Source of the DNA: an uncultured Bacilli bacterium
GTDB taxonomy: Bacteria > Bacillota_I > Bacilli_A > RF39 > UBA660
Direction: 5' to 3'
Assembly (NCBI GenBank): GCA_934148015.1
Contig: CAKPCU010000002.1
Span: 30,672-94,671 of the forward strand
Length of the DNA stretch: 64,000 nt
The translations under genes and the position numbers were made by a program. Positions 47,843-64,000 of this stretch are shown one piece after another. The notes beneath the pieces were generated by a model. It was not told the DNA's origin and did no database searches. It saw only the letters and a list, made by a program, of their open reading frames with translations. Position 1 is the first letter of the stretch; each line of letters opens with the position of its first letter.

Positions 47843-47870
47843 AAAAAATGCAGAATATTAATTTCTGCAT
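47843..47870 (-). terminator. Rho-independent terminator closing the SipW/TasA-like locus
   Basis: Minus-strand reading: ATGCAGAA, a 7 nt loop, TTCTGCAT, then TTTTTT. Confidence 0.75.
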
Positions 47871-47905
47871 TGTATTTATTATTTCGACAAAATTTGACAT
47901 ATAAA

Positions 47906-49108
47906 TTATTTTTTTAAACTATTTTTACTAGCTATTATAACTGGTACAACCTTGCATGTTTTGTCTTTTGATACCATATTTATACTTGATGTATCATTAT
48001 CTATTTTAGCTAAACTATAAGCAAATGTACTATTATCATGTCCATCTAAAAAGTAACATGTATTACTAGCTAGATATAAAAATGTACTATTTTTAAATAC
48101 ATAAGAAGCATTATTATTAGAATTATTATCTAATATGGTAGATGCCCTTGTTTTATAATCTACTTTTCCAAGTATTAAATCTGAAAGTCCTTCTTTTTTT
48201 ATAATAGTATTATCTATATCAGTTGAAATAACTTTTAATACATCTTCTACACTTAATTTTCTAGTATTAGCACTCCAACTTGATATTATATTGTTATATA
48301 ACGAATCACTATTATAAAATGTATTTTCTAAATAATTATTATCAAAACTTGGTAATAATGTAACAGTATCATCTGCTATTTTATTTTTTGTATCAATAAC
48401 ATGAGTTTTAATACATGTACTACTTATGTTATTGCATGCTTTATTATCTTTAACATCATATAAAATAAGTTTACCAAGGTCATAGTTATGATCTAATTCA
48501 TTTTCATCATCTTCTATAACCTGCTCTGCAATTAAACTTATTCCAAGTTTTATTAATGGAGATGAATTATTTGTATCTTTTTGATATTGATAAGCCTTAT
48601 TTCCCCATAAACTATCTAATTTATCATCACCAGAGTCAAGTGGCCAAGAAACAGATATTTTAAACCTATTTTCTTCACCCTTTAGTAGTACATTATTTCT
48701 ATCTAGTCCAATATTTATATGAAATGGATAGTTATGTGCTATAACATCTTCTATATAATCTGATGTGGTATCTAATGATGATGTCATATTATCTTCATTT
48801 AGTATTTTAACATATTCTATTTTATATTTAATACTTGCATCAGAATCACCTTTATTATTTATTACTATTTCTTCTTTATTCGTTTCCATGCCAGGCTTTA
48901 CATCATCAAGTGATATTACTATATCTTTTGTTGCAACCTCTTCTCCTCTTTTAAACTCTATATACCATGATTTTACAGTAACATCAGTATCTACCTTTGA
49001 TAATCCGCTATATGCAAACCAAGCAAGAGTAACTGAAATAAATGAAATAACCATAAATGTAATAGACATAATGCTAAGTCTTATATTAACTTTTCTTCTT
49101 TTATCCAT
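47906..49108 (-). CDS. Secreted TasA/camelysin-like protein (400 aa) with a SipW-cognate-type signal
   Basis: The N-terminal helix ends in VTLAWFAYS. It is followed by ISLDDVKPGMETNKEEIVINNKGDSDASIKYKI, resembling the TasA-type LKPGD...N.G strand pattern. Confidence 0.6.
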   Translation of the reverse strand: MDKRRKVNIRLSIMSITFMVISFISVTLAWFAYSGLSKVDTDVTVKSWYIEFKRGEEVATKDIVISLDDVKPGMETNKEEIVINNKGDSDASIKYKIEYVKILNEDNMTSSLDTTSDYIEDVIAHNYPFHINIGLDRNNVLLKGEENRFKISVSWPLDSGDDKLDSLWGNKAYQYQKDTNNSSPLIKLGISLIAEQVIEDDENELDHNYDLGKLILYDVKDNKACNNISSTCIKTHVIDTKNKIADDTVTLLPSFDNNYLENTFYNSDSLYNNIISSWSANTRKLSVEDVLKVISTDIDNTIIKKEGLSDLILGKVDYKTRASTILDNNSNNNASYVFKNSTFLYLASNTCYFLDGHDNSTFAYSLAKIDNDTSSINMVSKDKTCKVVPVIIASKNSLKK

Positions 49109-49136
49109 TTACTCCTCCTTGATAATATTTATTTTG

Positions 49137-49697
49137 TTATTTACTTCTTCTTTTTTCTTCTTTTTCTAACATAAATGACAATATCTCTGAACCTATTACA
49201 TAAAATAATGGTATTATTACGAATATTAACATTCCATATTTAGTACTAACTATTTTATAAATAAGTGATAATAATTTTACTTTATATACTACAACACCAT
49301 ATAATTGATCTTGATAAACTAATGGATCTTCTACTAAGTTAGCAGTACCTTTAGTTCTAAATACATATTTACCCTTTTCATCTTTTTCTATTCCAACAAC
49401 TTTATGTGTTATAACTTTATCTCTAAAGCTTCCAGCTCTACCTAAATAACTAATAGTATCTCCTACTTTTATTTTAGAAGCATCAGTTTCTTTTGATATT
49501 AAAACATCTCCTATATCATAAGTAGGCTTCATACTTCCAGATACAACGGTAAACATTCTAAGATTGAAAAATGATAATTTATTATTACTAAATCTTTGTA
49601 ATACAACTACTATTACAAATAGTATAACTAAAAGTGCTATAACAAAGTTTAAAACACTTTTAACTATTTTTAATCCTTTATTTTCCTTCTTTTCCAT
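49137..49697 (-). CDS. sipW: Signal peptidase I, SipW/Sec11 (ER-archaeal) type
   Basis: 186 aa: N-terminal TM helix, VVSGSMKPTYDIGD (Ser), ITHKVVG (His), TKGTANLVEDP, and a C-terminal TM helix. Confidence 0.8.
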   Translation of the reverse strand: MEKKENKGLKIVKSVLNFVIALLVILFVIVVVLQRFSNNKLSFFNLRMFTVVSGSMKPTYDIGDVLISKETDASKIKVGDTISYLGRAGSFRDKVITHKVVGIEKDEKGKYVFRTKGTANLVEDPLVYQDQLYGVVVYKVKLLSLIYKIVSTKYGMLIFVIIPLFYVIGSEILSFMLEKEEKRRSK

Positions 49698-49700
49698 AAA

Positions 49701-50831
49701 TTATAAATAATCCTTTATCCTTTCCATATATTCATCCATTTCTTTTTTAAACTTTCTTTTTACCGCATCACTACCACTAGACTGTATTTTCTTTTGTTTC
49801 TTTATTTCATCTGAAATAAATCTCATAAACTCATTTTCATCTATTTTAATACCAAGAGACATTAGTAAAGAAATTATTTTATCTATTTCTTCTGCACACA
49901 TAAGTATTGCATATTTAGATAATTTTTCTTTTTGCTCTTTCTTTGATGCAGCGATAGAATCTAAAACAAAATAATTCATTAAGAAAGATCTATCTAAAAA
50001 AACTTTAATTATATTATTTCCATCAGTATCAAAATTTTCTTTTAAATTCTTAGTATCATTTAAATAATAATTTCTTAAATAATCCCATAGTTTAACAGCT
50101 ATTTGGAAGTTAGGATTCTTAAGTATAATATTTGTCTTTTTAACTTGTGAATTAATAAGTGTTATATGAGCTTTATCTAAAGCTTTAACCATTTCACTTC
50201 TCTGCCAACTTGTAATATATTCTTTTACCCTTTTTATTCTTTGTTTAATATTTTCTATTTCTTCTTCTATATTTTTATTAGTATCATCATTAGGTATTGA
50301 AGTAGAAGTTATTTTAAGTGATATATCTACTTTTTCTTTTAACGTAGTAGTATCAGCTTTATATTCTAATACTTTCTTATTATTTACTTCTAGCTCATTA
50401 AGCAAATCTTCTTTTTCTAATATAAATTTATTCATTGTATATATAAGAGAATATAAAAATCTATTTTCATATATATTATAAGTTTCTTCATTTCTTATAT
50501 CTAGTATTTTTTTAGGCTCTATATCTTTTGTTTTTTCATTTAATTTTGAAATGTAATTAGTATGTCTTGCTAAATCTTTTACACTTGCAACAGTTATCTT
50601 TTTGGCTTTTTCAACTTTAACTACCATTTCTTCTTGAACTAAAGCCATTTTTGGATTTCTAACTATTATATCAATAAAAGGACAAGCTTTTTCCATCTCA
50701 TCCATCCATTCAAAAGAAAGGGAATCTCCTAAAAAGTCAGATTTAAAGTGCATATCAGAATTAGTATTTTTCAAAAAAACTTTTGAATTTTCATTTAATG
50801 TTTCATCAACTAAGTTTTCTAATTTAGCCAT
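49701..50831 (-). CDS. Cytoplasmic partner of the AAA+ protein; McrC-N/DUF2357-like region, no PD-(D/E)xK nuclease motif found
   Basis: 376 aa. ETYNIYENRFLYSLIYTM resembles the ENRF(L/V)K element of McrC/DUF2357 proteins. The gene is tightly packed (gaps of 18 and 3 nt). Confidence 0.45.
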   Translation of the reverse strand: MAKLENLVDETLNENSKVFLKNTNSDMHFKSDFLGDSLSFEWMDEMEKACPFIDIIVRNPKMALVQEEMVVKVEKAKKITVASVKDLARHTNYISKLNEKTKDIEPKKILDIRNEETYNIYENRFLYSLIYTMNKFILEKEDLLNELEVNNKKVLEYKADTTTLKEKVDISLKITSTSIPNDDTNKNIEEEIENIKQRIKRVKEYITSWQRSEMVKALDKAHITLINSQVKKTNIILKNPNFQIAVKLWDYLRNYYLNDTKNLKENFDTDGNNIIKVFLDRSFLMNYFVLDSIAASKKEQKEKLSKYAILMCAEEIDKIISLLMSLGIKIDENEFMRFISDEIKKQKKIQSSGSDAVKRKFKKEMDEYMERIKDYL

Positions 50832-50849
50832 TTATATCCCTTCCCTTTA

Positions 50850-52358
50850 TTATATACTCTTCTTTAATGTTTCTAGGTAAGATATACATTCTTTCATTAC
50901 ACCTTTACCTACCCTTTTATTTAAATATGATATAAAAGGATCTATTTCATCTCTAATAAATGAAACACTTAATTGATCAAATTTTCTAAGTATTTTCTTA
51001 GCTAAAAAGTAATCAATTCCTTCTATTTCACTACCACCACATCCAACATATACTGGAACGAAAGTATTAAGTTGTTTCATAATACGATTACCAAATGATA
51101 TTCTAAAGTGCTTTATTACATAATCATCCATTTCACTAACTAAATCTAAGTTTGCTTTTGAAACAGGATGTTTTTCAATTGCATCTTGAAATAAACTTTC
51201 TAAATAACTAGAATTTATTTCTAATGCTTCTTGATCTCTGCATTCAAAAGGATCTACCTTAGTATTTATATCAAGTGGCATAGCACGGTCATAAACTTTA
51301 TCTGTTACCATGAATGTTGAATCATCATTATTTATAGTACCAATATACCAAAGGTTTCCTGGTAATTTAAGTTTTCCATTTGGAATTTTCTTTGGATCTT
51401 TTTCCCAACTACTTGGTACTATATCAATTATCCATTCATCTCTATTAGGCATTTCAAGGATTGATAAAAGGTCCGCAAAGTAATATTCTACTCTAGCTAA
51501 GTTCATTTCATCTAGTATGATTGTATGAACATTATCATCAAACGATGCTGTGTATATCTCACCTAATGCCTTTGTTTCAGTAAACTTCTTAGTAAACTCA
51601 TTAAAGTATCCTAAAAAGTCTGATCTATCTCTCCAAGATGGTTCAACAGAAACAACACAAGAATCTACTTTAACAAACTTACCCCAAGCGTACGCAAGTG
51701 ATGTTTTACCAGTACCAGAAATACCTTGTAATATAATTAACTTACCACAAGCTAGTCCTGCAAAAAATGGTCTTAATATATCAAAATCATAATATAATTT
51801 TAATTTACTTGCAGCAAAACATCTAAAGTCATCTATTATTTCGGTTAAACTTTCACTATTGTTATATTTTTTAACTTTATAATTAGCTAATGCTTCATCA
51901 ATAGAAACAAGCTTTGGAAATCTTATATTTGGATCTCCTTTTATTTCATCTGAAACGTCATCAGCTTCTTCATCTTCTTTTTCCTCTTCATTAGGATTAA
52001 TACCTAACTGAGAAACTTTCATTGCCATTATCTTTTCTTTTTCTTTCATAAGTTGTTTAACTTGTTCATTTAAATTACCAATTTCATTTAATAATTCATC
52101 TTTATTTAATTTTCTATTAGCTTTTCTAATCATCTTTTTAATAAATAAAACTATAAGTCCAATTACTAATAAAACAATTATAACAAGAAAAGCAATACCT
52201 ATGTATAAAAAAGACTTTTCTCCTTTACTAAAGCTTCCACTATAACTATCTATTATTTTAGCATAAGCTTTAAAATCAAACATCTTTTTTATACCGCCAA
52301 ACAGCCCTTCAAAAAAGACAGAAAGAAATTCATAAAAGAATCTTAAAAACGTATTCAT
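50850..52358 (-). CDS. Membrane-tethered McrB-family (AAA_5/COG1401-like) AAA+ NTPase
   Basis: TM helix FLYIGIAFLVIIVLLVIGLIVLFI, then a coiled/acidic linker. Walker A is LQGISGTGKTS. McrB-type elements are ILDEMNLARVEYYFADLLSILE and WYIGTINNDDSTFMVTDKVYDRAMPL. Confidence 0.7.
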   Translation of the reverse strand: MNTFLRFFYEFLSVFFEGLFGGIKKMFDFKAYAKIIDSYSGSFSKGEKSFLYIGIAFLVIIVLLVIGLIVLFIKKMIRKANRKLNKDELLNEIGNLNEQVKQLMKEKEKIMAMKVSQLGINPNEEEKEDEEADDVSDEIKGDPNIRFPKLVSIDEALANYKVKKYNNSESLTEIIDDFRCFAASKLKLYYDFDILRPFFAGLACGKLIILQGISGTGKTSLAYAWGKFVKVDSCVVSVEPSWRDRSDFLGYFNEFTKKFTETKALGEIYTASFDDNVHTIILDEMNLARVEYYFADLLSILEMPNRDEWIIDIVPSSWEKDPKKIPNGKLKLPGNLWYIGTINNDDSTFMVTDKVYDRAMPLDINTKVDPFECRDQEALEINSSYLESLFQDAIEKHPVSKANLDLVSEMDDYVIKHFRISFGNRIMKQLNTFVPVYVGCGGSEIEGIDYFLAKKILRKFDQLSVSFIRDEIDPFISYLNKRVGKGVMKECISYLETLKKSI

Positions 52359-54367
52359 TATTCTCCCCCCACGTAATTTCCAGTTTTATTTAAAATATCA
52401 TCAAAGACAACTCTTTCTAATAATTCTTCTGGAATTGAATCATATATTACAGAAGATACATTTTTCTTAAGACCTACAAATATGTATTTAACTAAATATA
52501 AATCTTTCTTTTCTTTTTCATTTAAAGATTTTTCTTCTTCTAAACTTATTGCAAACTTAAAACCTATCTTCATTAATTTTTTAATTATTTTCTTATTTTC
52601 TCTAAATTCATTTTCTCTAATTAAAATAATTATACTATTTTTAACAAATTCATCATTTAGTTTTTCAATTATTTTATTTAGTTTATTTTCTTTTTCATAT
52701 AAGGTATTAGGTAAATATATAATGTATTTATCTTTAAAGTTAAATGAGAACATATTTTTAACTAATTTACTTAATAATAAGCTAACTAGTATAATTATTT
52801 TATCTTCTGCAATTACACCTTCACTATATGTTTTATCAACAATATAATCACTATAAGCTTTACTAAAAGTTATATTATGTTCTAGATTAATACCATGTAA
52901 ATCCTTTTTAGAAGTAATACCTTTAATGTTTAGCTCAAACATACCAGTTTCTAATTTTTCTAAACTTTGTTTAATCATACCAGTATGTATTTTTTGTAAC
53001 CTTATAATTCTATTTACATTTATTAGTATATCTTCTACTTCAGAATAATTTTTTATATATTTTAGTATCTCACTTTTATATAATTCTCTTTTAGCTTTTA
53101 TATCCATATCTACTAAACTGTAATGATCTAAACTAATAATAACATTAAATATAGATAAATACTTTTCTACTTTAAGTCCATACTTTAAGTCAGTACCCTT
53201 ATATTTTTTTATTAAATTAATAGCTTCTTCTTTCATTATATCTTTAGTTTTCTTAATAGCATTACGACCATTATACATCGTATTAACATCACCAGAATAA
53301 TTGTAATACTTTCCATCTATATAAGAATTTAATAATGACTCTTTAATAGTTGCTTCATTAACTTTTAGCTTCTTATCAGTATCTAAAATACTAATTATTT
53401 CATCTAATTCTAACTTTTTAATATAAATAGCTTTTTCTAAAATACTATTAAACTTTTTCTTTCTTTCATTTAGCATTTCTAAATTACTTTCTATAATAGA
53501 TGCATCATCTTCTTCATCCTTTTTATCTTCTAACGCTACTTTTTTTATAGACTCTTTATTATCATCAATAGAAGTTTCTGCAATCTTTAAATAAGTATTA
53601 TCAAGTTCTGTTTCATCAACATTTACCATTCTAAAGAACATAGTTTTATCCAAATCTTCAGGATTAGGTCTTGCCTCTATCTCTAAATTAAGATTATTAA
53701 CAGCCTCATCTTCTTCATCTATTTCTTTTTTATTATCTACTTTTAATTCTTTAATTATTTCTTCCTTGATAGGTTTTTTATCTTCTTTTATTTTTATATT
53801 AGATAATTTATCTTTTATTTTTTTTATAAAATCTTTTCTATTTGGTGATACTTTATCAATTAATTTATTAATCTTATTATCATTTGAATTAAGATTAGCT
53901 ACATAAACTATTAAAAGTAAAAGTATAATTATAAATGGATTAAATAAAGTCTTCTTAACAAATCCAAAATGAGGAAGTACTTTAACTACTTTACCAACTA
54001 TTTGTTTTTTACTTATTGCATCATCTTTAGTATTATTAGCATCACCTTTAGTAACGTAAGTATTCTTATAAGCTTCAACTACTCTATGTGTTATAAAATT
54101 CTTACCTTTTTTATACGTAACTACATCATTTAATGAGATATCATCTGTATATTTAACTATTATCCAGTCTCCTATATTTATTTCATTTTTCATACTACCT
54201 GTTTGAACTTCAAACAATGAATATCCAAAGAAGCTAGCATAATCATTTCCTAACACTTTTACTTCTATATTGTTATATATAAATACAATTAGAACAAATC
54301 CTAGTAAAAATATTAAAATATCTAAAATAACGTTTAACACTAACTCTTTAACACTTTTTTTGCTCAT
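52358..54367 (-). CDS. SipW-type signal peptidase I fused to a roughly 500 aa C-terminal extension
   Basis: N-terminal TM helix, QTGSMKNEINIGD (Ser), ITHRVVEAY (His), TKGDANNTKDD, a second TM helix (FIIILLLLIVYVANL), then a Lys/Glu-rich linker and a roughly 200 aa alpha/beta-looking C-terminal domain. Its stop overlaps the next ATG (TAATG). Confidence 0.75.
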   Translation of the reverse strand: MSKKSVKELVLNVILDILIFLLGFVLIVFIYNNIEVKVLGNDYASFFGYSLFEVQTGSMKNEINIGDWIIVKYTDDISLNDVVTYKKGKNFITHRVVEAYKNTYVTKGDANNTKDDAISKKQIVGKVVKVLPHFGFVKKTLFNPFIIILLLLIVYVANLNSNDNKINKLIDKVSPNRKDFIKKIKDKLSNIKIKEDKKPIKEEIIKELKVDNKKEIDEEDEAVNNLNLEIEARPNPEDLDKTMFFRMVNVDETELDNTYLKIAETSIDDNKESIKKVALEDKKDEEDDASIIESNLEMLNERKKKFNSILEKAIYIKKLELDEIISILDTDKKLKVNEATIKESLLNSYIDGKYYNYSGDVNTMYNGRNAIKKTKDIMKEEAINLIKKYKGTDLKYGLKVEKYLSIFNVIISLDHYSLVDMDIKAKRELYKSEILKYIKNYSEVEDILINVNRIIRLQKIHTGMIKQSLEKLETGMFELNIKGITSKKDLHGINLEHNITFSKAYSDYIVDKTYSEGVIAEDKIIILVSLLLSKLVKNMFSFNFKDKYIIYLPNTLYEKENKLNKIIEKLNDEFVKNSIIILIRENEFRENKKIIKKLMKIGFKFAISLEEEKSLNEKEKKDLYLVKYIFVGLKKNVSSVIYDSIPEELLERVVFDDILNKTGNYVGGE

Positions 54368-54405
54368 AAATACCCCTACCTTCTAGTATCATATCTTACT
54401 AAATT

Positions 54406-54434
54406 ATTTTATCATAATAAGATGCATATTACAA
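54406..54434 (-). promoter_or_regulatory. Candidate promoter of the five-gene cassette (TTGTAA, 17 nt spacer, extended -10 TGATAAAAT)
   Basis: Read on the minus strand. It lies between the upstream terminator and the RBS of 52358-54367. Confidence 0.45.
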
Positions 54435-54458
54435 CAAAATACGACTATTTTTTTAAAG

Positions 54459-54487
54459 AAAAAACTACCAGTATTCATAACTGATAG
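54459..54487 (-). terminator. Rho-independent terminator after the inactive peptidase paralogue
   Basis: Minus-strand reading: CTATCAGT, a 7 nt loop, ACTGGTAG (one mismatch), then TTTTTTC. Confidence 0.6.
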
Positions 54488-54500
54488 CAAATGCTTATTC

Positions 54501-55031
54501 TTAAGCCTCTTCTTTTGAACCATATTTTATTTCTACAATTAAAGCATATAATTCATAAATAAATATTAAAAATGATGGAAGTAAAACTATAAATAAGAAT
54601 CCCCATTTAGACTCTATTACTGATAAAAACGTACCAACATCATGATATACCTTTCCAGGTGTTCCAACAACGTAATTAATAGAATAAGTTGAACCATTTT
54701 CATACGTAATAGCTTGTTCTTGTTCATATATTTCACCAATCTTGCCATAGTCTATGCTAACAGATCCTTTAGCATCTACTTTATACGCAAAAACATTATC
54801 ACCAACTTTTAAGTTTTCTAACTTTTGTTTTTGAACTAAAACTAAATCTCCTTTTTTATAATCATTAGTAGAAATAGCTTCTTTTAAAATAACTAATGTT
54901 TTATCCCCAAACTCAGTAAGTCCATAATCATTATAATTTAATAATAACACTGTCATAAAAATAACAAATCCAAAGAATACAACTGCTAGTATTCCTAAAA
55001 ATATATTTTTAATAAGTTTTAATGCTTTCAT
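54501..55031 (-). CDS. SipW-fold paralogue lacking the catalytic Ser and His (pseudo-peptidase)
   Basis: Same N-terminal and C-terminal TM architecture and length as sipW. However, SGSM is replaced by LKEAIS, THKV by DYGKI, and TKGxAN by YENGST. Start at MKALKLI follows an AGGAGG RBS. Confidence 0.65.
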   Translation of the reverse strand: MKALKLIKNIFLGILAVVFFGFVIFMTVLLLNYNDYGLTEFGDKTLVILKEAISTNDYKKGDLVLVQKQKLENLKVGDNVFAYKVDAKGSVSIDYGKIGEIYEQEQAITYENGSTYSINYVVGTPGKVYHDVGTFLSVIESKWGFLFIVLLPSFLIFIYELYALIVEIKYGSKEEA

Positions 55032-55136
55032 AATACCTCCTATACTACTATCCAAAATTATATCATACTTTTAAAACCTTATCAATAATAATAATTTAAT
55101 AATTTAAATCTATAAATTTATAATATTTTATAATTG

Positions 55137-56012
55137 TCAATTATTTAAATTTATCTTAAAATCATTTTTATCATAGGTTTTACCTAAATCTGTTTTATAA
55201 AAAACTATCTTAATATTTTTATTACTATCTAAATCAAATGCAATTTTATTAATAAAATCATTAGAATCTTTAGATTCTTCTTTTAAATTGCTAGTCATAT
55301 CTACTCTTAATTTATCTGAGTCAAAATAAAGTGTATAAGTCTTTTTACTATCTAAAAGATTAGATACTATAACCTCTACTTTTTCATCGTAATTATTACA
55401 ATTAAGTGTAACATCATCATTAATATTTAGCTGCCTTGAAAGAGAAAACTTTCCCTTTAAAATCTTTTTATAAGGACTTGTTGATGTAACTATTATATTA
55501 ACTTCAGCATCATTTATCTTAGTGTTATCTAAGCTTACTAGATTAAAATAAAGTTTTGCTTCACTTTTATTATCAAGCCATTCATATCCATTTTTAATAC
55601 AATCATCAAGATTATTAATATCTGTTATAACATCAGAGGTAGTATTAAAACATACTTTAGATGAAGATAACGTGCCATTATAAGTACTATCATTATCATT
55701 TATAATACATTTATAATTACTATTATTAGTAGAACACTCTACTTTATAAGATATATCATAATCAGTTATTAATGAATCATTTAAATAGTTTTTAATATCA
55801 AAATATGTATTACTACCATCCCAAGCATTATTAACATTAGATACTTCTTCTAAATCAAGACTATTACTAGAAAAGTAAAAATCTTTAGACTTATAATAAT
55901 AGTTTAAAACGTTATTATAAGCATACTTAGCAAAGGATACACCATATGTTAAAACAAGTGTAAGTACTAATATTAATATAATCATAATTCTTATCTTGCC
56001 ACTTTTTTTCAT
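55137..56012 (-). CDS. Secreted protein (291 aa) with a SipW-cognate-type signal
   Basis: The N-terminal helix ends in VSFAKYAYN. It shares the NAWDGS element with the giant protein (NTWDGS). Confidence 0.55.
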   Translation of the reverse strand: MKKSGKIRIMIILILVLTLVLTYGVSFAKYAYNNVLNYYYKSKDFYFSSNSLDLEEVSNVNNAWDGSNTYFDIKNYLNDSLITDYDISYKVECSTNNSNYKCIINDNDSTYNGTLSSSKVCFNTTSDVITDINNLDDCIKNGYEWLDNKSEAKLYFNLVSLDNTKINDAEVNIIVTSTSPYKKILKGKFSLSRQLNINDDVTLNCNNYDEKVEVIVSNLLDSKKTYTLYFDSDKLRVDMTSNLKEESKDSNDFINKIAFDLDSNKNIKIVFYKTDLGKTYDKNDFKINLNN

Positions 56013-56019
56013 AATTCAC

Positions 56020-56562
56020 CTACTTTTGCCAGCTTTTTATTTCAATATCAATATAATCAGTTATATTTGAATAACTACTATCATTATAATCTTGTGGAAA
56101 ACTAATATTTAATCTATAATTATCATTAATTTTTTCATTATAAACCATTTCAAATACATCTGAATTACATACTAAAGCATTTTCTTCATTTCTACTATAT
56201 GTTTCATCACAAGTTAAAACTAAATTACTTTTATTACTCTCTTCTTTATATAAATTAATATTTAATGGAATAAAATGATAAGTTTTTATAGTTATTGTAT
56301 AATTTAAAGTAACATCACTACTATAATTTTCATTATTATTAGAAACAGTAAAGGTATAATCTTTTAAATCACCTGGTTTTAACTCATCTAACGAAATATT
56401 TATATTATCTGTTTTCTTCCCGTCAAAAACAAATGATGCTATTTTTTCATCATCACTTGTAAGTGATGCTTTAGAATTAAATTTAGAGTATGTTATACCT
56501 GATATAAATAAAGTACTAACTATTAAAATTACTAAAATAATTATTTTCTTTTTCATAATCAT
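56020..56562 (-). CDS. Small TasA/camelysin-like secreted protein (180 aa)
   Basis: The helix ends in ITYSKFNSK. It is followed by ISLDELKPGDLKDYTFTVSNNNE, a TasA-like pattern. Confidence 0.65.
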   Translation of the reverse strand: MIMKKKIIILVILIVSTLFISGITYSKFNSKASLTSDDEKIASFVFDGKKTDNINISLDELKPGDLKDYTFTVSNNNENYSSDVTLNYTITIKTYHFIPLNINLYKEESNKSNLVLTCDETYSRNEENALVCNSDVFEMVYNEKINDNYRLNISFPQDYNDSSYSNITDYIDIEIKSWQK

Positions 56563-56569
56563 ACTCCTT

Positions 56570-59500
56570 TTATTTTGTTATAAATGCTTTATCTGTAAAA
56601 CTTATCATTTTATCATTATCGTATAAGTAAAATCTTAACTTATACAAATTATAATCTAAACTATTAGGTTTTAAATTAATAGTTATCTTATTATTAAAAT
56701 CATTTTTATTATCTACTAATAAATACATATTATCTTTATATAGTGTTAAATTATCAGATGTATAATCATTTATATTTATTTGTTTATAACTTACATCTAA
56801 TGCTGATAATACACTTTTTTTAAGTAATGATACATATATTTTAGGATTTGATAATTTACCCTTATACAATATATTATAATTCATACTGTAATTATCTAAA
56901 GTTTTCTTAATTATCTTTTCGTTACTATCTTGTATATCAAATGAGTAATTATGAGTATTCTTCTTATTTGTAACATTTAAAGGAATATTTATAGAATCTA
57001 TAGATAATATGTTATCTAATACTCCATCAAATGATAAATAAGCTTCTATATCAAAGTAGTATTTACCCTCATCTAAAATGCTATTATCTACTTTAGTTAT
57101 AATATTAAGAACTTTATTTAAAGTATCACTACTATTTGATAAATTAATATTTATTACATCTTTATTCATAGAATATTTATTATCATCTATCATAAATTTA
57201 ATGTTCTTTAAATACTTATGATCTACTATATTTTTATTTGAATCTAATACTTTTATCTTTAATCCCCATACCATGTTAAGTAAATTACTATCTATAATCT
57301 TATTTTTATTTATATAGCTATATACTTTTGATAAATTAATATCTATATTATTTTCAGAGTTACTATTATACATAACTTCATCACTATAATTAGATTTTAT
57401 TTGAGCATTAGAAGTCATATTATTGTATATATTTATTTCTTTTAAACTATTCTTTAAAGAACCTCTAACTTCGTTTTTCTTATTATCTAAAACTGAAACT
57501 GATAATATTAAACCGCTAATTTCTTCATCTATATTACAATGAGAAAAATCTACAGTTATTTTATAGGTATCATCTATATTTTTAGTTACATCTTTTTTAA
57601 ATACTTCTTTAGAAGATTTTCCAATTAAACTAAATAAGTCAAATGAATATAAGTAATATGAATCTTTTAATAAATAGTCATCTTCTTTTACATTATAAGT
57701 ATACATACTATTATTTAAATTCAAAGTTATTTTAGTATTAACAGGTAATATTTTATTTGACTTTAAGTAAAATGTATCATTATCATTAAATTTATAATCT
57801 GATTTATAAGTATATTTTAATAAAATACTAGAATTACTTGTTATATTTAATTTATCGTATGACTCATCATAGTTATTTAATATGTATAATCCTTCACACT
57901 TATAACCCTCATACAAAATTAAGTCTGATGAAGCATAAGATGCAATACCTATATTATCTAAAGCTTTAATATAAATAATAGAACTTTTATTATTTATAGT
58001 TATCTTATCTTTATAATTAGTCCATAAACTATCATCTATTAAATCTAGTTTTTCTTTATTTAAGACCCCTTCTGAAACATAATACTTAATAGATTTAACA
58101 CCAGACATTTCATCTTTAGCATTTACAAAAATGTCTAAATTTTCATTTATAAAATATATAGATGGATTATCATTTAAAGTATTTAAAGTTTTATTATTAT
58201 AACTTATCTCTATATCACATCCACTTAAATCAAGTACTAATATATCAGAATTAATATACGTAATATTATCATTATAATCAACTATTTTAGCATATATAAT
58301 GTAATACCCTTCTTCACTAATTTTCTTTGATGATGTAAATAACTGCCAGTCAGTTATATTGTTTAATTCATCATAAGATAATGCATTCTTATCTTTTTTT
58401 ATGTAATAGTATATTTCTTTAACCTTATTTAAATTATCATCTTCTTTAATATTAAACGTAATATCATTACTTACTAAAACTTCATTTAAGCTGTAGCTTA
58501 CATTATTCCAAGAATAAGAATTAATATTAATGCTCGCTAAAGGCTTATTAATATCATCGGTATATAATATTGGATAAGAATCATCTTCATATACCCAAAC
58601 ACTATTAATGTTATTTTTTATGTTATCTAAATCTGTAAATTCACTAAAGCCTAGTGTGTTAACTAAAAAGTTTTTATTTTTTAAATTAGAAGTATAAGTT
58701 ATTTTACCTGTATAATTACCTGAAAATGCATATTTACTTGATGAAGCGTATGAATTTGTTATGCTAATAGATGAAGATAATATGTTTAAAATAAAGTAAG
58801 AATCAGTTGCATTAAAAGTATTTTTTATAGAAAAGTTATTTGTATTATTTATATTTCCTATAATACCAGATGAGTTTTCTGCACTTATCTCTCCTGCGTT
58901 ATAAGTATTTGATATTAAACCAGATGCATTATTTAAGTAAGATATAATACCTGATGCTATCATTTTACTATTTATAGAGCCTGTATTATATGAATTATTA
59001 ATATTTATTTTTTCCCTTCCTAATGAAACTATACCAGATGAATAATTATAACCATATACATATGCCTTATTAATAGTATTTAAAATATTAGTATTACTAG
59101 CTTCTGAAGCAATTCCAGATGAAATACCAAGTTTATATTTTACTTTGTATTTTAAATTAGTTATTTTAATATCTTCTATCGTGTTTAATTTATATAAAAT
59201 AGATAAATTACTAGCACTACTATCTACATTTATACTAAAGTTACTACTATCTATACTATTATTATTTATAGATATACTAGATAAGCTAGAAAAGTTATCT
59301 ATTACACCTTCTAAAGTAATACTTTCTATATCATAGTAAGATAAGTTAATATTACTTAAATCTATATTTGATGAAGTACTATCTTTTGATAATAAAATAT
59401 CATCTAAACTTATTTCATTTTCTTCATAAGTATTATTATCACTACCAATTACATATCCACCATAAATAGTATTTTCTATTAAACCATTATCTACATTTGA

Positions 59501-60118
59501 TGCAATACCACCAGTTATATTTCCACCATAAATAAGTGAATTTTGTACATATAAATCTTTAACAGTTCCATTTAAATTAGTAAATAATCCAAGATATTTA
59601 GTATCTTTTTTAGTTATATAAGCACCGTATATAGTATGAGAATTACCATTAAATGTACCCTTAAAATTATTAATTGAATCAAATAAGTTAATACTACCAA
59701 CTTTATTTGTCATATCACTAGAAGAATAATAATTAGATGAATATTTATCTACAAAATAAGTATTACCATCTAATATATATTTAATTAAATTATCTTCATA
59801 TTTAAATGTACCTTTATTTATTATAATATCATTACTTAACTCAAAATAAGTATTACTATAACTTGTAGTTTTAAGCATATTACTAAAATAAGCTAACTCT
59901 GATGCATTAGAAATAATAAAAGGATCATCCTGACTTCCTGAACCACTTCTATAACTAGAAGAAATAGAGCCATCCCAAGTATTATCAATGTTTAAAGGAT
60001 TTCTATTTTTTTGTCTTGCAAAAGTCGCTATTGAAACAGATGATAGTATCAAAATAAAAATTGCTATAAGTATTATATATATTTTATTTTTTTTACTTTT
60101 AAGGTTAAACTTTTTCAT
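56570..60118 (-). CDS. Giant secreted protein (1182 aa) with GLUG-like repeats and Ig-like C-terminal modules; no LPXTG motif
   Basis: The N-terminal helix ends in IATFARQKN and is followed by NTWDGS...GSQDDPFIISNASELAYF. Repeats include GGIASNVDNGLIENTIYGGYV, SGIASEASNTNILNTINKAYVYG and SGIVSL...NNSYNTGSI. Confidence 0.7.
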   Translation of the reverse strand: MKKFNLKSKKNKIYIILIAIFILILSSVSIATFARQKNRNPLNIDNTWDGSISSSYRSGSGSQDDPFIISNASELAYFSNMLKTTSYSNTYFELSNDIIINKGTFKYEDNLIKYILDGNTYFVDKYSSNYYSSSDMTNKVGSINLFDSINNFKGTFNGNSHTIYGAYITKKDTKYLGLFTNLNGTVKDLYVQNSLIYGGNITGGIASNVDNGLIENTIYGGYVIGSDNNTYEENEISLDDILLSKDSTSSNIDLSNINLSYYDIESITLEGVIDNFSSLSSISINNNSIDSSNFSINVDSSASNLSILYKLNTIEDIKITNLKYKVKYKLGISSGIASEASNTNILNTINKAYVYGYNYSSGIVSLGREKININNSYNTGSINSKMIASGIISYLNNASGLISNTYNAGEISAENSSGIIGNINNTNNFSIKNTFNATDSYFILNILSSSISITNSYASSSKYAFSGNYTGKITYTSNLKNKNFLVNTLGFSEFTDLDNIKNNINSVWVYEDDSYPILYTDDINKPLASININSYSWNNVSYSLNEVLVSNDITFNIKEDDNLNKVKEIYYYIKKDKNALSYDELNNITDWQLFTSSKKISEEGYYIIYAKIVDYNDNITYINSDILVLDLSGCDIEISYNNKTLNTLNDNPSIYFINENLDIFVNAKDEMSGVKSIKYYVSEGVLNKEKLDLIDDSLWTNYKDKITINNKSSIIYIKALDNIGIASYASSDLILYEGYKCEGLYILNNYDESYDKLNITSNSSILLKYTYKSDYKFNDNDTFYLKSNKILPVNTKITLNLNNSMYTYNVKEDDYLLKDSYYLYSFDLFSLIGKSSKEVFKKDVTKNIDDTYKITVDFSHCNIDEEISGLILSVSVLDNKKNEVRGSLKNSLKEINIYNNMTSNAQIKSNYSDEVMYNSNSENNIDINLSKVYSYINKNKIIDSNLLNMVWGLKIKVLDSNKNIVDHKYLKNIKFMIDDNKYSMNKDVININLSNSSDTLNKVLNIITKVDNSILDEGKYYFDIEAYLSFDGVLDNILSIDSINIPLNVTNKKNTHNYSFDIQDSNEKIIKKTLDNYSMNYNILYKGKLSNPKIYVSLLKKSVLSALDVSYKQININDYTSDNLTLYKDNMYLLVDNKNDFNNKITINLKPNSLDYNLYKLRFYLYDNDKMISFTDKAFITK

Positions 60119-60170
60119 ACTTATATCACTATCCCTTCTACTTCTTTTTATCTAGTTTATATACATTAAA

Positions 60171-60179
60171 ATTATAACA
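60171..60179 (-). promoter_or_regulatory. Extended -10 element TGTTATAAT upstream of the giant gene
   Basis: Minus-strand reading. It lies just downstream of the terminator at 60199-60232. The -35 element is weak. Confidence 0.4.
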
Positions 60180-60198
60180 TAGATTTGACAAATTTAGA

Positions 60199-60232
60199 CA
60201 AAAAAATGCACCAATCATAACCAATTGGTACA
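60199..60232 (-). terminator. Rho-independent terminator after the 541 aa gene
   Basis: Minus-strand reading: TGTACCAAT, an 8 nt loop, ATTGGTGCA (one mismatch), then TTTTTTT. Confidence 0.65.
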
Positions 60233-60239
60233 TATTATA

Positions 60240-61865
60240 TTATTTCTTAATGCTTTCCTTACTTAGTATTTTTTCAACTTCTGTCATAAACCATATTTTA
60301 TTTGCAGAAGTACTACTATTATTAATTTTATTAATTCTTAATATAAGTAATATTTTATTTAATAAGTTATCTAAATTATCTGGATCCAACTCTTCTAAAG
60401 TTAACTTAATATTACTAAGTCTATACTTATTAATTATTATTTTAGCTATATCAGTATCAGAAAATACTAAAAGACCATTAACTATTATATTAGTAGGATT
60501 CATAGCATATAAATCAAACTTTTCACTTAATTCTTCTATTTCTTCATAAGTACTTAAATTATATACTCTTTGAATAGTTATCTTTTTAAAGTAATCATAA
60601 CTATAATATAAATTTAATACATCAGATATTGAAATAGTATTATTTAATATTTGAAGAACTTTATCTTTAAAATATGCTTTATCATATTTTTGATATAATT
60701 CATATAATTCTTTAGCTATACATACTGAATTAATCTTCATTTGTTTTAAATTAGAATCACTTTTAAATTCAAAGAATCCAGGTCTTCCACCAAATATCTT
60801 TTTATTTAATTTATAAAGTTCTTTTTCTTTAGCTTCTATTTTATCTACTACTTCTTTTAATTCTTTATATTCAGTTTTTTCTTTAGCATCTACTTCTTTT
60901 TTATACTCTTTTTTAAAGTCTTCAAAAAGAGGTAAAAACATAGCATAATTACTATACTCTATAACATTTAATTTTAATTTTTCTAAAATATCACATATCT
61001 TATTTAATTTATCTTTATCATTAAAATCATTTTCATCATAAAATAACGATTGTACTGCATTTGTCTTAACTTTACTATTTTCTAAATATTCATTTATATT
61101 TATTTTACCAGTCTTTGCTAAATTAGCTATATCATATATATTTTCTTTATTAGCAAAATTAAGTTCTATGTATGCTGATTTTAATTTTTCTAAACAATCT
61201 TGATAGTTTTTAATATTATTATTAACCATTACTTCTTTTTGTAATTTTATAATATAACTATTAAATTTTCTATGATTATCTTTTATTAATTTTCTAAAGT
61301 TCAACTCTATATGACTTATAATATCAGGATTTACCCAGTATATTTGCTCAAATATTTCTGATACTTTTTCATATGATAAGCTCTTTTTATTTCTAACGTC
61401 TAAAAAAGAAGACATATATTCATGTACATAGCATGTATATTTAAAATCATCACTTGTTAACTTAATACCTGCTAGTTCAAACTTATCTAAAAAGCCGTTT
61501 ATTATTTCATTTAATGATTTAAAATTAAATGTATAATAATTGTTTAATCTATATAGTAAATCATCAAAACCCATCTTTTCAAAATAACTATTTGATGGAT
61601 TAAGTAAAAATTTTACGTTTTCTAAATTTATTAGAGTATCATTTAATTTATCAAGGTTTTCTCTATCATCTTTTATTTTAATAGCTCTGTTTTTTGCTAA
61701 TATATAATTTCTAACACTATCTTTATATTCGTTATATTTATTTTCCATATCTTTTATATTAGCATTAAATTTTTTCTTATTAGTTTTTGTTTTTGTTGGA
61801 AGTGTTGATAAAAGCGTTTTCTTTGCATTAATATCTTTTACGATAAAGTCTAAAAAGTTATTCAT
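60240..61865 (-). CDS. Cytoplasmic helical protein (541 aa), unknown function
   Basis: No signal peptide or TM helix. Lys/Glu/Asn-rich with coiled-coil-like segments. ATG at 61865 is preferred over the ORF-track GTG at 61874. Confidence 0.6.
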   Translation of the reverse strand: MNNFLDFIVKDINAKKTLLSTLPTKTKTNKKKFNANIKDMENKYNEYKDSVRNYILAKNRAIKIKDDRENLDKLNDTLINLENVKFLLNPSNSYFEKMGFDDLLYRLNNYYTFNFKSLNEIINGFLDKFELAGIKLTSDDFKYTCYVHEYMSSFLDVRNKKSLSYEKVSEIFEQIYWVNPDIISHIELNFRKLIKDNHRKFNSYIIKLQKEVMVNNNIKNYQDCLEKLKSAYIELNFANKENIYDIANLAKTGKININEYLENSKVKTNAVQSLFYDENDFNDKDKLNKICDILEKLKLNVIEYSNYAMFLPLFEDFKKEYKKEVDAKEKTEYKELKEVVDKIEAKEKELYKLNKKIFGGRPGFFEFKSDSNLKQMKINSVCIAKELYELYQKYDKAYFKDKVLQILNNTISISDVLNLYYSYDYFKKITIQRVYNLSTYEEIEELSEKFDLYAMNPTNIIVNGLLVFSDTDIAKIIINKYRLSNIKLTLEELDPDNLDNLLNKILLILRINKINNSSTSANKIWFMTEVEKILSKESIKK

Positions 61866-62010
61866 TTTTATCACTTTCCTTTTCTTCTATATCAAACTTA
61901 TTATCATCCAAAAACTGTAAGAAATCTACTATATCTTGATAAACTTTTATTAGATCTTCCAAGCTTAATTTTGAAAGATCAAATCCCACTTTATTATTCT
62001 CCATTTTCAT
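61858..62010 (-). CDS. Small acidic protein (50 aa)
   Basis: Not in the ORF track. Translation: MKMENNKVGFDLSKLSLEDLIKVYQDIVDFLQFLDDNKFDIEEKESDKNE. Its stop overlaps the next ATG (ATGAATAA). Confidence 0.45.
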   Translation of the reverse strand: MKMENNKVGFDLSKLSLEDLIKVYQDIVDFLQFLDDNKFDIEEKESDKNE

Positions 62011-62028
62011 AATCTATACCTTCCCTTT

Positions 62029-63117
62029 TTAATTAAATGATGTATATCCTGTTGTATCTTTTATAAAATTAATTGAAATAGCAAGTTCAGCCCCAGATGA
62101 ATCTGTCTCTAGACTATCTATATCTTGTCCTTCTATCCATACATAGACTCTCATTTTAGTAACTCCATTTGGAATTGAAAATAACGGAGTATCAAATTCT
62201 GTATCTGTAATAGTTTGTTGTTCTTCAAAATAATTCATATCCATTGCAGAAGAGCCTGATACTGTATCTTTTACATATATTGGTCCTCCAGCTTTTTTAT
62301 AAGCATATGTTGGAAACTTTTCGCCATCCTTTAAATTTATACCATATTCTTTAGCTTTTTCTTTTGACATATTAGTATGAATTCTACTATTAGGTTCAAA
62401 TATAATTGATCTGCAATTATTATTACAAGATAAATTTTGTATTGTTCTATAATCAGTATCTAAAGGTGCACTACCTACTTTAACAAATCCTATTCTAGTT
62501 GAATTAACAAGACCTTGCATTTCCTCTGTTTCTCCATCATCTATGGTAACTTCTGTTCCAAAGTCTAAAAATAAATTATCATCTACAGGAGAACCTGTAT
62601 CATTCTTAACAAATAAATCAAATGCTATAAATGAGCTGTAAGGATATATTCCTTTTTCTGTTAATAATTTAGTATTAACAAATCCATTTTTTTGATTTTT
62701 ATTTCTGTACATAACCCCTGCACTAGAATATATTTCAAATTTTGATTTATTACTATCTCTAACACCTAGTGTAGATACTGGAGTAAGTCCCATCGCAGCC
62801 CACTGACTAGTATTATTAGGATATGTATTTTTTAAGTTATTTATAAGCGTTTCTCTAGATATTTCAACATAATTATCATAGTTAATAGCATCAAAAGATA
62901 TTTGAAGACCACTATTTTTTGTTACTATCATATTAAACGTTTTAACCTTAACATTTAAGTTTGTTGAAAACCATGCATATGTTGCTGCAATTAAAGTAAT
63001 TCCTAAAAAAACAATACTTGTAATTAAAAGAGGGCGATTTTTCTTATGAAGTAATACTCTTTCTTTTACTTTGTTTTTTCTTTTAGCTCTGCTTTTAACA
63101 GTCTTAGTATTTTTCAT
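62029..63117 (-). CDS. Secreted protein with a SipW-cognate-type signal; paralogue of 63191 to beyond 64000 (candidate fibre subunit)
   Basis: The helix ends in ATYAWFSTN. The C-terminus KMRVYVWIEGQDIDSLETDSSGAELAISINF matches its neighbour. Start at MKNTKTV follows the RBS AAAGGTGGTGA. Confidence 0.6.
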   Translation of the reverse strand: MKNTKTVKSRAKRKNKVKERVLLHKKNRPLLITSIVFLGITLIAATYAWFSTNLNVKVKTFNMIVTKNSGLQISFDAINYDNYVEISRETLINNLKNTYPNNTSQWAAMGLTPVSTLGVRDSNKSKFEIYSSAGVMYRNKNQKNGFVNTKLLTEKGIYPYSSFIAFDLFVKNDTGSPVDDNLFLDFGTEVTIDDGETEEMQGLVNSTRIGFVKVGSAPLDTDYRTIQNLSCNNNCRSIIFEPNSRIHTNMSKEKAKEYGINLKDGEKFPTYAYKKAGGPIYVKDTVSGSSAMDMNYFEEQQTITDTEFDTPLFSIPNGVTKMRVYVWIEGQDIDSLETDSSGAELAISINFIKDTTGYTSFN

Positions 63118-63143
63118 ATAATCACCACCTTTTAAATACAAAC

Positions 63144-63174
63144 GAAGAGTAATTATAAATATTTATTACTCTTC
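63144..63174 (-). terminator. Perfect 10-bp intercistronic hairpin (possible attenuating terminator) between the two paralogues
   Basis: GAAGAGTAAT, an 11 nt loop, ATTACTCTTC, followed on the minus strand by GTTTGTATTT. Confidence 0.5.
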
Positions 63175-63190
63175 ATTTATTTATAATTTT

Positions 63191-64000
63191 TTATTCTCCA
63201 TCTTGAGATGTTGTTGGAGTAATATCAGTACTTGGTCCTTCATAATTTACATCAGTTTCAGTAAATCTTTCTTTAGTGAATCCAAAGTTAATTGATATTT
63301 TCTTTCCAAGTGATGCGAAATCATAGTTATCAACATCTTGACCTTCGATAAATACATATACTCTAACCTTTGTAATACTATTAGGAGCTAAAGTCATAAA
63401 TGTAGGTCTTTCAGTTCCTTTTTTATTTTTCATAGTATCTGTAAAGTATGGAAAATCAACTAATTTGTATTGTGATTTATCTTCTGCTTGAGCATATGTA
63501 GCATAATCTACAGTACTGTTTTCATAACTGTTATAACCAGCTCCATCATATACATCAACGTTATCAGCTATAGTAAGTGCTCTTGAAATAGCATATGTTG
63601 GTTTAGCTTCTGTAGTAGTAAATGTTGCACAGTTAGTTTTTGCACCATCTCCTAATGTAGTATCATAAGAAGCTGCATCAGTAACATTAGTTCCTTCTGG
63701 TTTTCTCTTTAAGCATGAAGTTTCATACCAATTAATAGCATTTTGAACGTGTGCAGTATCATTTGGTTCCCAAATTTGAGCACTACGGCAAATACCAGTT
63801 ACTTGAGCTTTACCATCTGCTGCTTCAACATTAGAACATGTAATACCAGTTATATTAGTTGCATCAGTAGTATCTCCTTTAACACGACCAATTTGTGCAA
63901 AGGCAACTCTAACAGAGTTTTCAATACCAGTTCCATTTTGACCAGTTGAAGCAACTTTAACAGCTGAATTAGTTGTTAAATAAATAGCTTCTTCGTTTAA
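63191..64000 (-). CDS. Secreted paralogue of 62029-63117 (candidate major subunit); the 5' end lies beyond the window
   Basis: The ORF-track 80 aa ORF (63191-63433) is only the tail. The same frame stays open with no stop up to 64000. Manual translation: ...VRVAFAQIGRVKGD...GICRSAQIWEPNDTAHV...KVRVYVFIEGQDVDNYDFASLGKKISINF. Confidence 0.7.
   Translation of the reverse strand, partial: LNEEAIYLTTNSAVKVASTGQNGTGIENSVRVAFAQIGRVKGDTTDATNITGITCSNVEAADGKAQVTGICRSAQIWEPNDTAHVQNAINWYETSCLKRKPEGTNVTDAASYDTTLGDGAKTNCATFTTTEAKPTYAISRALTIADNVDVYDGAGYNSYENSTVDYATYAQAEDKSQYKLVDFPYFTDTMKNKKGTERPTFMTLAPNSITKVRVYVFIEGQDVDNYDFASLGKKISINFGFTKERFTETDVNYEGPSTDITPTTSQDGE

Follow-up and report, generated by a model that had tools for sequence, protein, structure and literature searches.

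Dedicated archaeal-type signal peptidases are encoded beside their substrates in the TasA/TapA/SipW system of Bacillus subtilis, in CalY/SipW of B. cereus and in BsaA/SipW of Clostridium perfringens. In those substrates the signal helix ends in T-[WYF]-A-x-F, and no sortase is involved. Fibres of the TasA type are thought to assemble extracellularly without energy input, sortase-dependent and type IV pili being the recognised alternatives in Gram-positive bacteria. A further class, CoCoPALM ("pilus assembly linked to McrBC"), was named in one paragraph by Bell et al. (eLife 2024, PMC11090510), who deferred its analysis; in it, an NxD-type McrB GTPase is fused to an FtsB-like membrane helix and a coiled coil, and coiled coils are found on both homologues. 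Here we analysed a locus which begins at position 47906 of a 64,000-nucleotide stretch of DNA (the window) from an uncultured Bacilli bacterium of the RF39 lineage (assembly GCA_934148015.1, contig CAKPCU010000002.1) and which runs past the end of this stretch. Its genes are lettered b to p in their order across the whole locus, and the 13 genes within the window are d to p. The locus comprises 15 genes over about 18.7 kb and represents, in complete form, a conserved system that we infer to build an extracellular protein fibre or pilus; we give this reading a probability of roughly 0.55. It is best filed under CoCoPALM, a class named but so far uncharacterised, as an elaborate and complete member with a new cargo family.

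The locus shares with the TasA-type systems the signal peptidase encoded next to its substrates, the signal-end motif, the lack of a sortase and, in protein i, an LxPGD strand with weak similarity to Peptidase_M73. However, it has 15 genes instead of about three and three proteins of peptidase fold, one of them inactive, and its main subunits belong to another family, of 360–430 amino acids. In addition, a GTPase pair and cytoplasmic proteins are integral to it, whereas TasA fibres assemble without a nucleoside triphosphatase (NTPase). The original prediction presented this region as a much larger and more complex version of the three-gene TasA operon. Its size bears this out, but the GTPase core had been overlooked and, because the locus includes an McrB-like GTPase, a DUF2357 partner and a cytoplasmic pair of 541 and 50 amino acids, it is something other than an enlarged TasA operon.

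Extent and conservation of the locus

All open reading frames (ORFs) from 47906 to 64000 lie on the minus strand, and the G+C content is approximately 25% throughout. The 13 genes first counted in the window are found once the 50-amino-acid ORF at 61858..62010 is included, and the spacing ranges, as had been described, from an 8-nt overlap (f/g) to a 133-nt gap (54367 to 54501). Sequence beyond base 64000 was supplied by a 134-kb Hadza contig (locus L001). With this extension, the minimum of 16 kb given at first became about 18.7 kb, reaching about 2.6 kb past base 64000. We took genes b to p as the conserved unit because the 185-amino-acid protein and the glycosyltransferase cluster upstream of them occur in close relatives only. 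The window was 99% identical to CAKPIS010000005, and an exact-sequence look-up found the 362-amino-acid protein e, in its ATG-start form, on many human-gut metagenome contigs; a 370-amino-acid ORF of the same gene starting at TTG returned no exact match.

A scan that took one genome per species detected relatives of family e in 232 species-representative genomes. The best 80 of these, all uncultured gut metagenome-assembled genomes labelled as Bacilli, Tenericutes, Mollicutes, Candidatus Coprovivens and similar, were examined as species-level loci, and 17 proteins were compared by BLASTP with the ORFs of 89 loci. Every BLASTP hit was co-directional with e. The genes formed three blocks: module 1 (b c d e f g), module 2 (h i j k) and module 3 (l m n o p). 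Gene order within the modules was stable across the 80 loci, and the modules were always adjacent but permuted, the order being 1-2-3 in 33 loci, 3-1(-2) in 8 and 2-1-3 in 5, with the remaining loci cut by contig or flank ends. All 15 genes were present within 21 kb in four loci. Gene g was found in 78 of the 80 loci and gene f in 69, always with g adjacent to it, and m and n were kept in every locus reaching that far, regardless of module order. Over seven complete aligned orthologues, the identity of m was 63–74%. Thus the genome comparison that had been suggested gave co-conserved genes and not scattered ones.

Six terminator-like sites were identified, against 1.3 expected from shuffled sequences. 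Two of them are internal to the locus, on the minus strand, at the sites first given for the terminators. The first lies between modules 1 and 2 (60233-60206) and has a 12-bp stem followed by T7, and the second lies between modules 2 and 3 (54488-54464). Both hairpins coincide with boundaries of the blocks that are permuted in other genomes, so that the division into three transcription units, proposed from the hairpins, is backed by two independent lines of evidence. Another hairpin, with a 9-bp stem and a T run (47847..47871, minus strand), is located just downstream of gene p and ends the locus. The downstream neighbourhood is fixed and of housekeeping character, the locus lying upstream of rlmN, prpC (PP2C phosphatase) and prkC (PASTA kinase), with rsgA and rpe also present.

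Some variation was seen among species. Paralogues of the c/d type differed in copy number and in order (L044, L069, L072, L075, L078, L081 and others), L044 for instance having b c d c d c d e, and the f-g pair was duplicated or relocated in some loci (L071, L073, L076 and L085). In one strain (L004, about 12880–13030), gene g carried an in-frame insertion of 150 nt close to its 3' end. An apparent split of g in L002 was not biological, as it corresponded to a scaffold gap of N bases.

Signal peptidases of the SipW type

As first proposed, this is a dedicated multi-gene locus for secretion and assembly, centred on SipW-type signal peptidases. The three genes first described as SipW-fold do have this fold, but only o and l are predicted to be active peptidases, k being a pseudo-peptidase by its sequence. 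Gene o (49137..49697, minus strand; 186 amino acids) scored 78.3 bits (E 5.6e-22) with TIGR02228, the model of archaeal-type signal peptidase I, whose curated cutoff is 51.85 bits. Residues 1–160 of gene l (52358..54367, minus strand; 669 amino acids) were also above this cutoff (69.1 bits, E 3.8e-19). Both proteins matched the Bacillus SipW model as well, below its equivalog cutoff. The o protein resembled the endoplasmic-reticulum peptidases SEC11A and SEC11C of human (E ~7e-6), its SGSM, THKV and ED motifs falling on the catalytic Ser, His and Asp, respectively. In l the corresponding motifs are TGSM, THRV and KDD. These three residues are kept in o, in l and in their orthologues. A hydropathy scan gave two helices in o, in k and in residues 1–160 of l, located close to the two ends of the peptidase domain.

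Gene k (54501..55031, minus strand; 176 amino acids) is the last of module 2. It reached only 13.6 bits with TIGR02228, below the membership cutoff, and retained the SipW-like length, the two-helix topology and the KKGDLV strand. Because of this score and because its catalytic Ser and His positions are replaced in every sampled orthologue, we regard k as a conserved, catalytically dead member of the fold. In function it may parallel SipA/LepA of Streptococcus pyogenes, a protein of signal-peptidase fold free of catalytic residues, encoded within a pilus locus and needed for polymerisation of a sortase pilus. The two are nevertheless of different types, SipA being of the S26A type and accompanied by sortases and LPXTG pilins, whereas k is of the SipW/SEC11 type.

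In l the peptidase is fused to a cytoplasmic region of about 500 amino acids which follows the second helix and showed no similarity in Pfam or in the PDB; entries 4n31 and 4k8w surfaced weakly in the PDB search. The region was also considered as a degenerate EAL domain, as it contains the pattern ...KLMKIGFKFAIS... and a distant relative encodes a true EAL protein at that position. The hhalign probability was 0.15% and the PDB profile search yielded no EAL domain, and so the candidate was rejected at this sensitivity.

The best sigma-70-like site of the 16.7-kb region was located just upstream of k (55057-55085, minus strand), with 11 of 12 matches and an extended TG. Judging from this site, k may also be transcribed on its own.

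The original prediction had given sortase and LPXTG motif as absent, and this was confirmed: [LIV]PX[TSA]G was absent from all 16 proteins and no sortase was matched in Pfam and NCBIfam scans of the locus proteins. Similarly, their Pfam and NCBIfam matches included no PilB/TadA-type ATPase, platform protein or prepilin peptidase of type IV pilus, Tad or archaellum systems. The absence of a type IV pilus ATPase and platform thus stands, but the locus does hold an NTPase, the McrB-like AAA+ protein m.

The signal-end motif

The original prediction recognised six proteins sharing a motif at the end of the signal helix. The sharing was correct, but the motif-bearing proteins are eight, plus a ninth, b, with a degenerate form. 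Each of the five N-termini visible in the window has one hydrophobic helix followed by the motif, as had been reported. The sixth protein (63191 onward), already taken as a paralogue, is complete in the same contig in public metagenomes; it has 433 amino acids and carries STYAWFIG (...VSTYAWFIGMK in L001). The common form is T-[YLF]-[AS]-x-[FY] directly after the single helix, which is also the pattern of TasA (GTWA|AF).

Conservation was determined from orthologue alignments of 11–94 sequences per family. The residues after the helix rank among the most conserved of each protein, with 82–100% in the core, and the motif is thus no product of chance. In c and d the motif is S-T-Y-A-W-F-I-G-M (T 92–96%, Y 85–98%, A 96–97%, W 100%, F 98–100%), and in e it is S-T-Y-A-W-F-S, with Y, A and W at 100%. 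For p it is T-L-A-W-F-A-Y-S-G, in which L-A-W-F-A-Y and G were invariant and T and S reached 81% among 11 orthologues, and for i it is G-I-T-Y-S-x-F (T 96%, Y 98%, S 96%). The families of j and h show G-x-[TS]-[YF]-A-K-Y and I-P-T-L-A-R-[FY]-K-N-R, respectively. Protein b has Y-F-V-I-G at the motif position and is probably left uncleaved, because no small residue occupies the predicted cleavage position. A scan of the N-termini also gave a weak archaellin match (E 0.034), below threshold.

The McrB-like GTPase and its partner

Gene m (50850..52358, minus strand) encodes a membrane-anchored McrB-like AAA+ GTPase of 502 amino acids. In PDB comparisons McrB chains were the closest, with E 0.0015 for the single sequence and 2.4e-5 for the profile, and no other AAA+ family was listed. 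The Walker A (GISGTGKTS), Walker B (ILDEMN) and signature (GTINNDDST) motifs are all present, and GT[AI]N-x-D-D-S-T-F, of the NxD type, is conserved in m of the window and in the relatives where the pattern was located. The hydropathy scan placed a membrane helix at residues 55–73, followed by a charged helical linker. No Pfam or NCBIfam match to FtsB or DivIC was obtained for the N-terminus. Residues 1–47, before the helix, are highly conserved (MNTF.RFFYEF.S.FF.G), and this segment may contact the peptidases or the cargo. Among 1.84 billion representative proteins, 8206 relatives of m were found at E<=1e-3, while the stricter limit of E<=1e-30 gave 731, counted as 50%-identity clusters; 86 of the best 150 have 1–4 predicted membrane helices upstream of Walker A.

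The next gene, n (49701..50831, minus strand; 376 amino acids), matched Pfam DUF2357 (PF09823; McrC N-terminal domain) with E 6.4e-12 and 45.7 bits, the cutoff being 23.3. Its C-terminal half is helical, and no other domain and no nuclease family was matched in Pfam or NCBIfam. Like McrBC, the type IV restriction system of Escherichia coli, the pair has the AAA+ GTPase core with Walker A and B and the N-x-D-D signature in m, and in n the DUF2357 domain, which in McrC activates McrB (PMC11090510). Unlike in McrBC, m has a membrane anchor in place of the DNA-binding N-terminal domain, no PD-(D/E)xK nuclease was detected in n, and both genes are embedded between the signal peptidase genes of a secretion locus. 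The l-m-n-o genes are extremely close, the stop of l overlapping the start of m by 1 nt and the next spacings being 18 and 3 nt. This suggests coupled expression and fits with participation of the products in one complex.

The locus agrees with CoCoPALM in three respects: an NxD-clade McrB-type GTPase that carries a membrane helix at its N-terminus and then a helical linker, a DUF2357 homologue of McrC, and genes of the signal peptidase family, since l and o flank m and n, with k nearby, an arrangement kept across loci and recurring in L090. It departs from it in that the cargo families, the dead peptidase, the SipW fusion, the f/g pair and the three-module architecture are not in PMC11090510. 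No CoCoPALM details were found in the supplementary files of that article. No later CoCoPALM paper was present in the literature library searched, and a query combining SipW and McrB returned irrelevant co-mentions only.

In locus L090, whose m-like protein has 48% identity to m, the nucleotide sequence is visibly more G+C-rich. There, the gene order is a c/d/e-like (pilin-like) protein ending in ...FIWIEGFDIDG, SipW (E 3e-29), a membrane-anchored McrB-like protein, an EAL protein and a DUF2357-like protein. L093 encodes an McrB-like protein with four helices and, after it, DUF2357. The EAL gene of L090 (3396-4373), which belongs to a family of cyclic di-GMP (c-di-GMP) phosphodiesterases and separates the McrB-like and McrC-like genes, hints at c-di-GMP control. 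At gathering thresholds, Rfam identified no RNA family, the c-di-GMP riboswitch included, in the 64-kb window or in the 21-kb extension of L001. A distant McrB-like homologue in L092 (2686-4341) lies directly after a prophage lysis module (holin, M23/LysM endolysin-like).

Exported and cytoplasmic proteins

The hydropathy scan showed a single N-terminal helix in p, j, i, h and e, and no helix in n and g. The dominant cargo consists of the three paralogues c, d and e (362–433 amino acids), which by their sequences constitute a new family and which matched one another at 100% in hhalign. Gene e (62029..63117, minus strand; 362 amino acids) has the motif ATYAWFSTN and a Lys/Arg-rich tail. Of d, the C-terminal 269 codons are in the window (63191..64000, minus strand). 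Gene c, beyond the window, encodes a protein of 424 amino acids with the same motif as d. Gene b, in the same region, encodes 238 amino acids, with LVSYFVIGIIYN after the N-terminal helix and a C-terminal WIEGSDPECTD like that of c, d and e. Among the 598 homologue clusters of e, none was named or had a Pfam domain. The AlphaFold2 model of e had a predicted local distance difference test (pLDDT) value of 82 and a predicted template modelling score of 0.80.

The e family has an invariant C-N-N-N-C pair (residues 231–235 of e) and an invariant acidic stretch near the C-terminus, W-x-E-G-Q-D-I-D-S-L-E-T-D-S-x-G (327–340). A related WIEG.D motif is present in b, c, d and the distant L090 protein. 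That the Cys pair and acidic stretch form a metal or calcium site is speculation.

The link with TasA and camelysin that had been proposed for the cargo in general appears real only for i, of 178 amino acids, and its neighbour j, of 291. Gene i (56020..56556, minus strand) carries the motif GITYSKF. Its family aligned by hhalign with TasA (87%, E 3.8e-6) only in the first 81 columns, comprising the signal peptide, the motif and the first strand (LxPGD...F.F.N), with GITYS.F placed on GGTWAAF and LxPGD on LKPGD. The window copy scored 15 bits (E 0.02) with Pfam Peptidase_M73 (PF12389), under the gathering score of 22.5 bits, and 34 of 49 orthologues matched at E<=0.1, the best having 4.7e-5. 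From these similarities i would be a divergent relative of TasA/camelysin. Its AlphaFold2 model (pLDDT 76.6) consists of a helix, disordered residues 28–41 just after the motif and a sandwich of 9–10 strands; in the model of e, too, the N-terminal helix and motif lead into a linker of low confidence, behind which comes a beta sandwich. The N-terminal regions of i and j (55137..56012, minus strand; motif VSFAKY) are related (hhalign 95%, E 2.7e-8, 87 columns).

The largest cargo protein, h (56570..60118, minus strand; 1182 amino acids), is encoded first in module 2. It has the motif IATFAR and SGI[AIV][SG] repeats, and is a candidate adhesin or tip component. Gene p (47906..49108, minus strand; 400 amino acids; motif TLAWFAYSG), the last of module 3, has an N-terminal region aligning with that of the 362-amino-acid family (hhalign 89%). 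Neither h nor p had a Pfam match or, as single sequences, a PDB match, and Peptidase_M73 was matched by none of d, j, p and h. The remaining two genes of module 1 are f (61858..62010, minus strand), for an acidic protein of 50 amino acids with net charge −7, and g (60240..61865, minus strand; 541 amino acids), which always follows f, overlaps its end by 8 nt and has no predicted membrane helix or signal sequence. The g-family profile gave no PDB match.

The cargo is acidic and contains many N-x-S/T sequons, 35 of them in h. Because of these and of a glycosyltransferase cluster which precedes the locus, the cargo may be glycosylated. This cluster was seen upstream in L001 (1575-5742, 192-1463), with five genes (Alg14-like, Glyco_tran_28_C, GT1, GT2 and WecA-like GT4), together with a membrane-anchored cadherin-like protein and the 185-amino-acid protein, in this species and its closest relatives only.

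Assembly model and alternative explanations

Gene content, catalytic status of the peptidases, conservation of the motif, joint retention of the genes and the homologies to McrB and DUF2357 are shown by the sequences, and from them we propose the following pathway. The eight cargo proteins would be inserted by Sec and held in the membrane via their single N-terminal helix. The SipW-type peptidases o and l would cut after T-[YLF]-[AS] and release the subunits, whose new N-terminus, an aromatic-rich segment followed by a flexible stretch, would serve as donor strand as in TasA. The shaft would be made of the paralogues c, d and e, while b, their shorter relative, would stay membrane-bound as the base. 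Proteins h, i and j would form a tip or adaptor set, whose motif the dead peptidase k may hold without cutting. Finally, m with its activator n, the cytoplasmic region of l, f and g would constitute a unit in the cytoplasm, driven by NTP or acting as a gate, to which processing and assembly are coupled. In this scheme, the McrBC-derived GTPase and activator, together with the SipW fusion at the membrane, would drive or gate the steps by which members of a new pilin family are cleaved, extracted and polymerised through donor strands. We offer such an NTP-powered surface-filament pathway, previously unrecognised in Gram-positive-type bacteria, tentatively, as possible but less probable than the fibre itself.

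Several observations weigh against the fibre reading. TIGR04088, the NCBIfam model of the SipW-cognate signal, recognised neither the full proteins nor, at E<=10, any of the eight isolated N-termini. As this curated model recognised no N-terminus, the signal class, first taken as the SipW-cognate one of TasA/camelysin, resembles it in its motif but is not a recognised member of it. Peptidase_M73 was found in 0 of 50 members of the e family, and the profile of this family had no PDB sequence match. Foldseek with the model of e gave no convincing PDB fold match, its best E value being 0.028 and none falling below 0.01; the two highest probabilities, 0.20 each, were for the TasA fibre 8aur and the archaeal thread 7pnb, a likeness that is suggestive at most. 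With the model of i, Foldseek returned only generic folds of the jelly-roll and beta-sandwich kind (domain III of Cry11Aa, Pgp3, PPC and collagen-binding domains), TasA being outside the top 50. Since i links to TasA and Peptidase_M73 while c, d and e match none, one small subunit would be TasA-related and the dominant family new. In addition, no homologue with a known function was matched by g, by f or by the C-terminal region of l. Relatives of McrBC are otherwise conflict systems. Fibres of the TasA type are not known to need an NTPase or another source of energy, which makes the part given to the GTPase the weakest step of the pathway.

The same genes could instead produce a surface coat or single adhesins and no fibre, the SipW-type peptidases processing c, d, e, h, i, j and p as abundant surface proteins associated with the wall or membrane and the GTPase unit regulating or quality-controlling export. 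We consider this unlikely. It would accommodate the fold of c, d and e, which has no pilin or TasA match, the resemblance of b to a permanent membrane anchor, the acidic cargo rich in N-x-S/T sequons, and the glycosyltransferase cluster and cadherin-like protein adjoining the locus in close relatives. However, the motif and the link between i and TasA indicate strand-donating subunits, and a tip, adaptors and a shaft are brought to mind by a cargo set in which a single giant protein accompanies several small ones and three major paralogues. The dead peptidase also points to a pilus, through a likeness to assembly factors of the SipA/LepA type that is drawn from the names of PDB entries 4n31 and 4k8w.

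A role in conflict or defence seems less likely still. Here, m and n would be a membrane-tethered, McrBC-derived sensor and motor of the CoCoNuT-like clade, and the secreted proteins would act against phages or competitors, for example by receptor masking or triggered release. The NxD clade of m is indeed placed beside the CoCoNuT restriction systems (PMC11090510), one distant homologue is next to a prophage lysis module and the copy number of c and d differs between genomes. Nevertheless, no nuclease or nucleic-acid-binding domain was matched in Pfam or NCBIfam and the neighbourhood upstream of rlmN, prpC and prkC is fixed. The presence of the e family in 232 genomes, the stable order within modules and the 63–74% identity of m are also unlike patchy defence islands.

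An ordinary enlarged TasA/SipW biofilm operon into which an unrelated McrBC pair was inserted by chance, as might be suggested by the presence of SipW genes, by the likeness of the motif to that of TasA and by the weak match of i to Peptidase_M73, is contradicted by synteny and highly improbable. Both m and n are placed within module 3, flanked by SipW genes at spacings of 1–18 nt, and they are retained in every locus reaching that far whatever the module order. Moreover, m has a membrane anchor in the place of the DNA-binding domain of McrB, n lacks a nuclease, and the same linkage is seen in the distant lineage of L090.

Significance

The genes examined here probably build a surface fibre by a route without prior study. 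The coupling of SipW processing with a membrane McrB-like GTPase would represent a new class of pilus assembly, in which the motor of a restriction enzyme is reused for cell-surface biogenesis. If the NTP-powered pathway is real, it would be the first non-defence use of the McrBC machinery, and the filament would be a dominant organelle on the surface of bacteria that form an uncultured order in the human and animal gut. The locus also adds new protein families, namely the c/d/e fold, g, f and the tail of l, and the predicted mature N-termini (W-F-...) could be sought in existing gut metaproteomes. As the system is strongly conserved in uncultured gut Bacilli, it is likely to be central to the attachment or aggregation of these bacteria in the gut.

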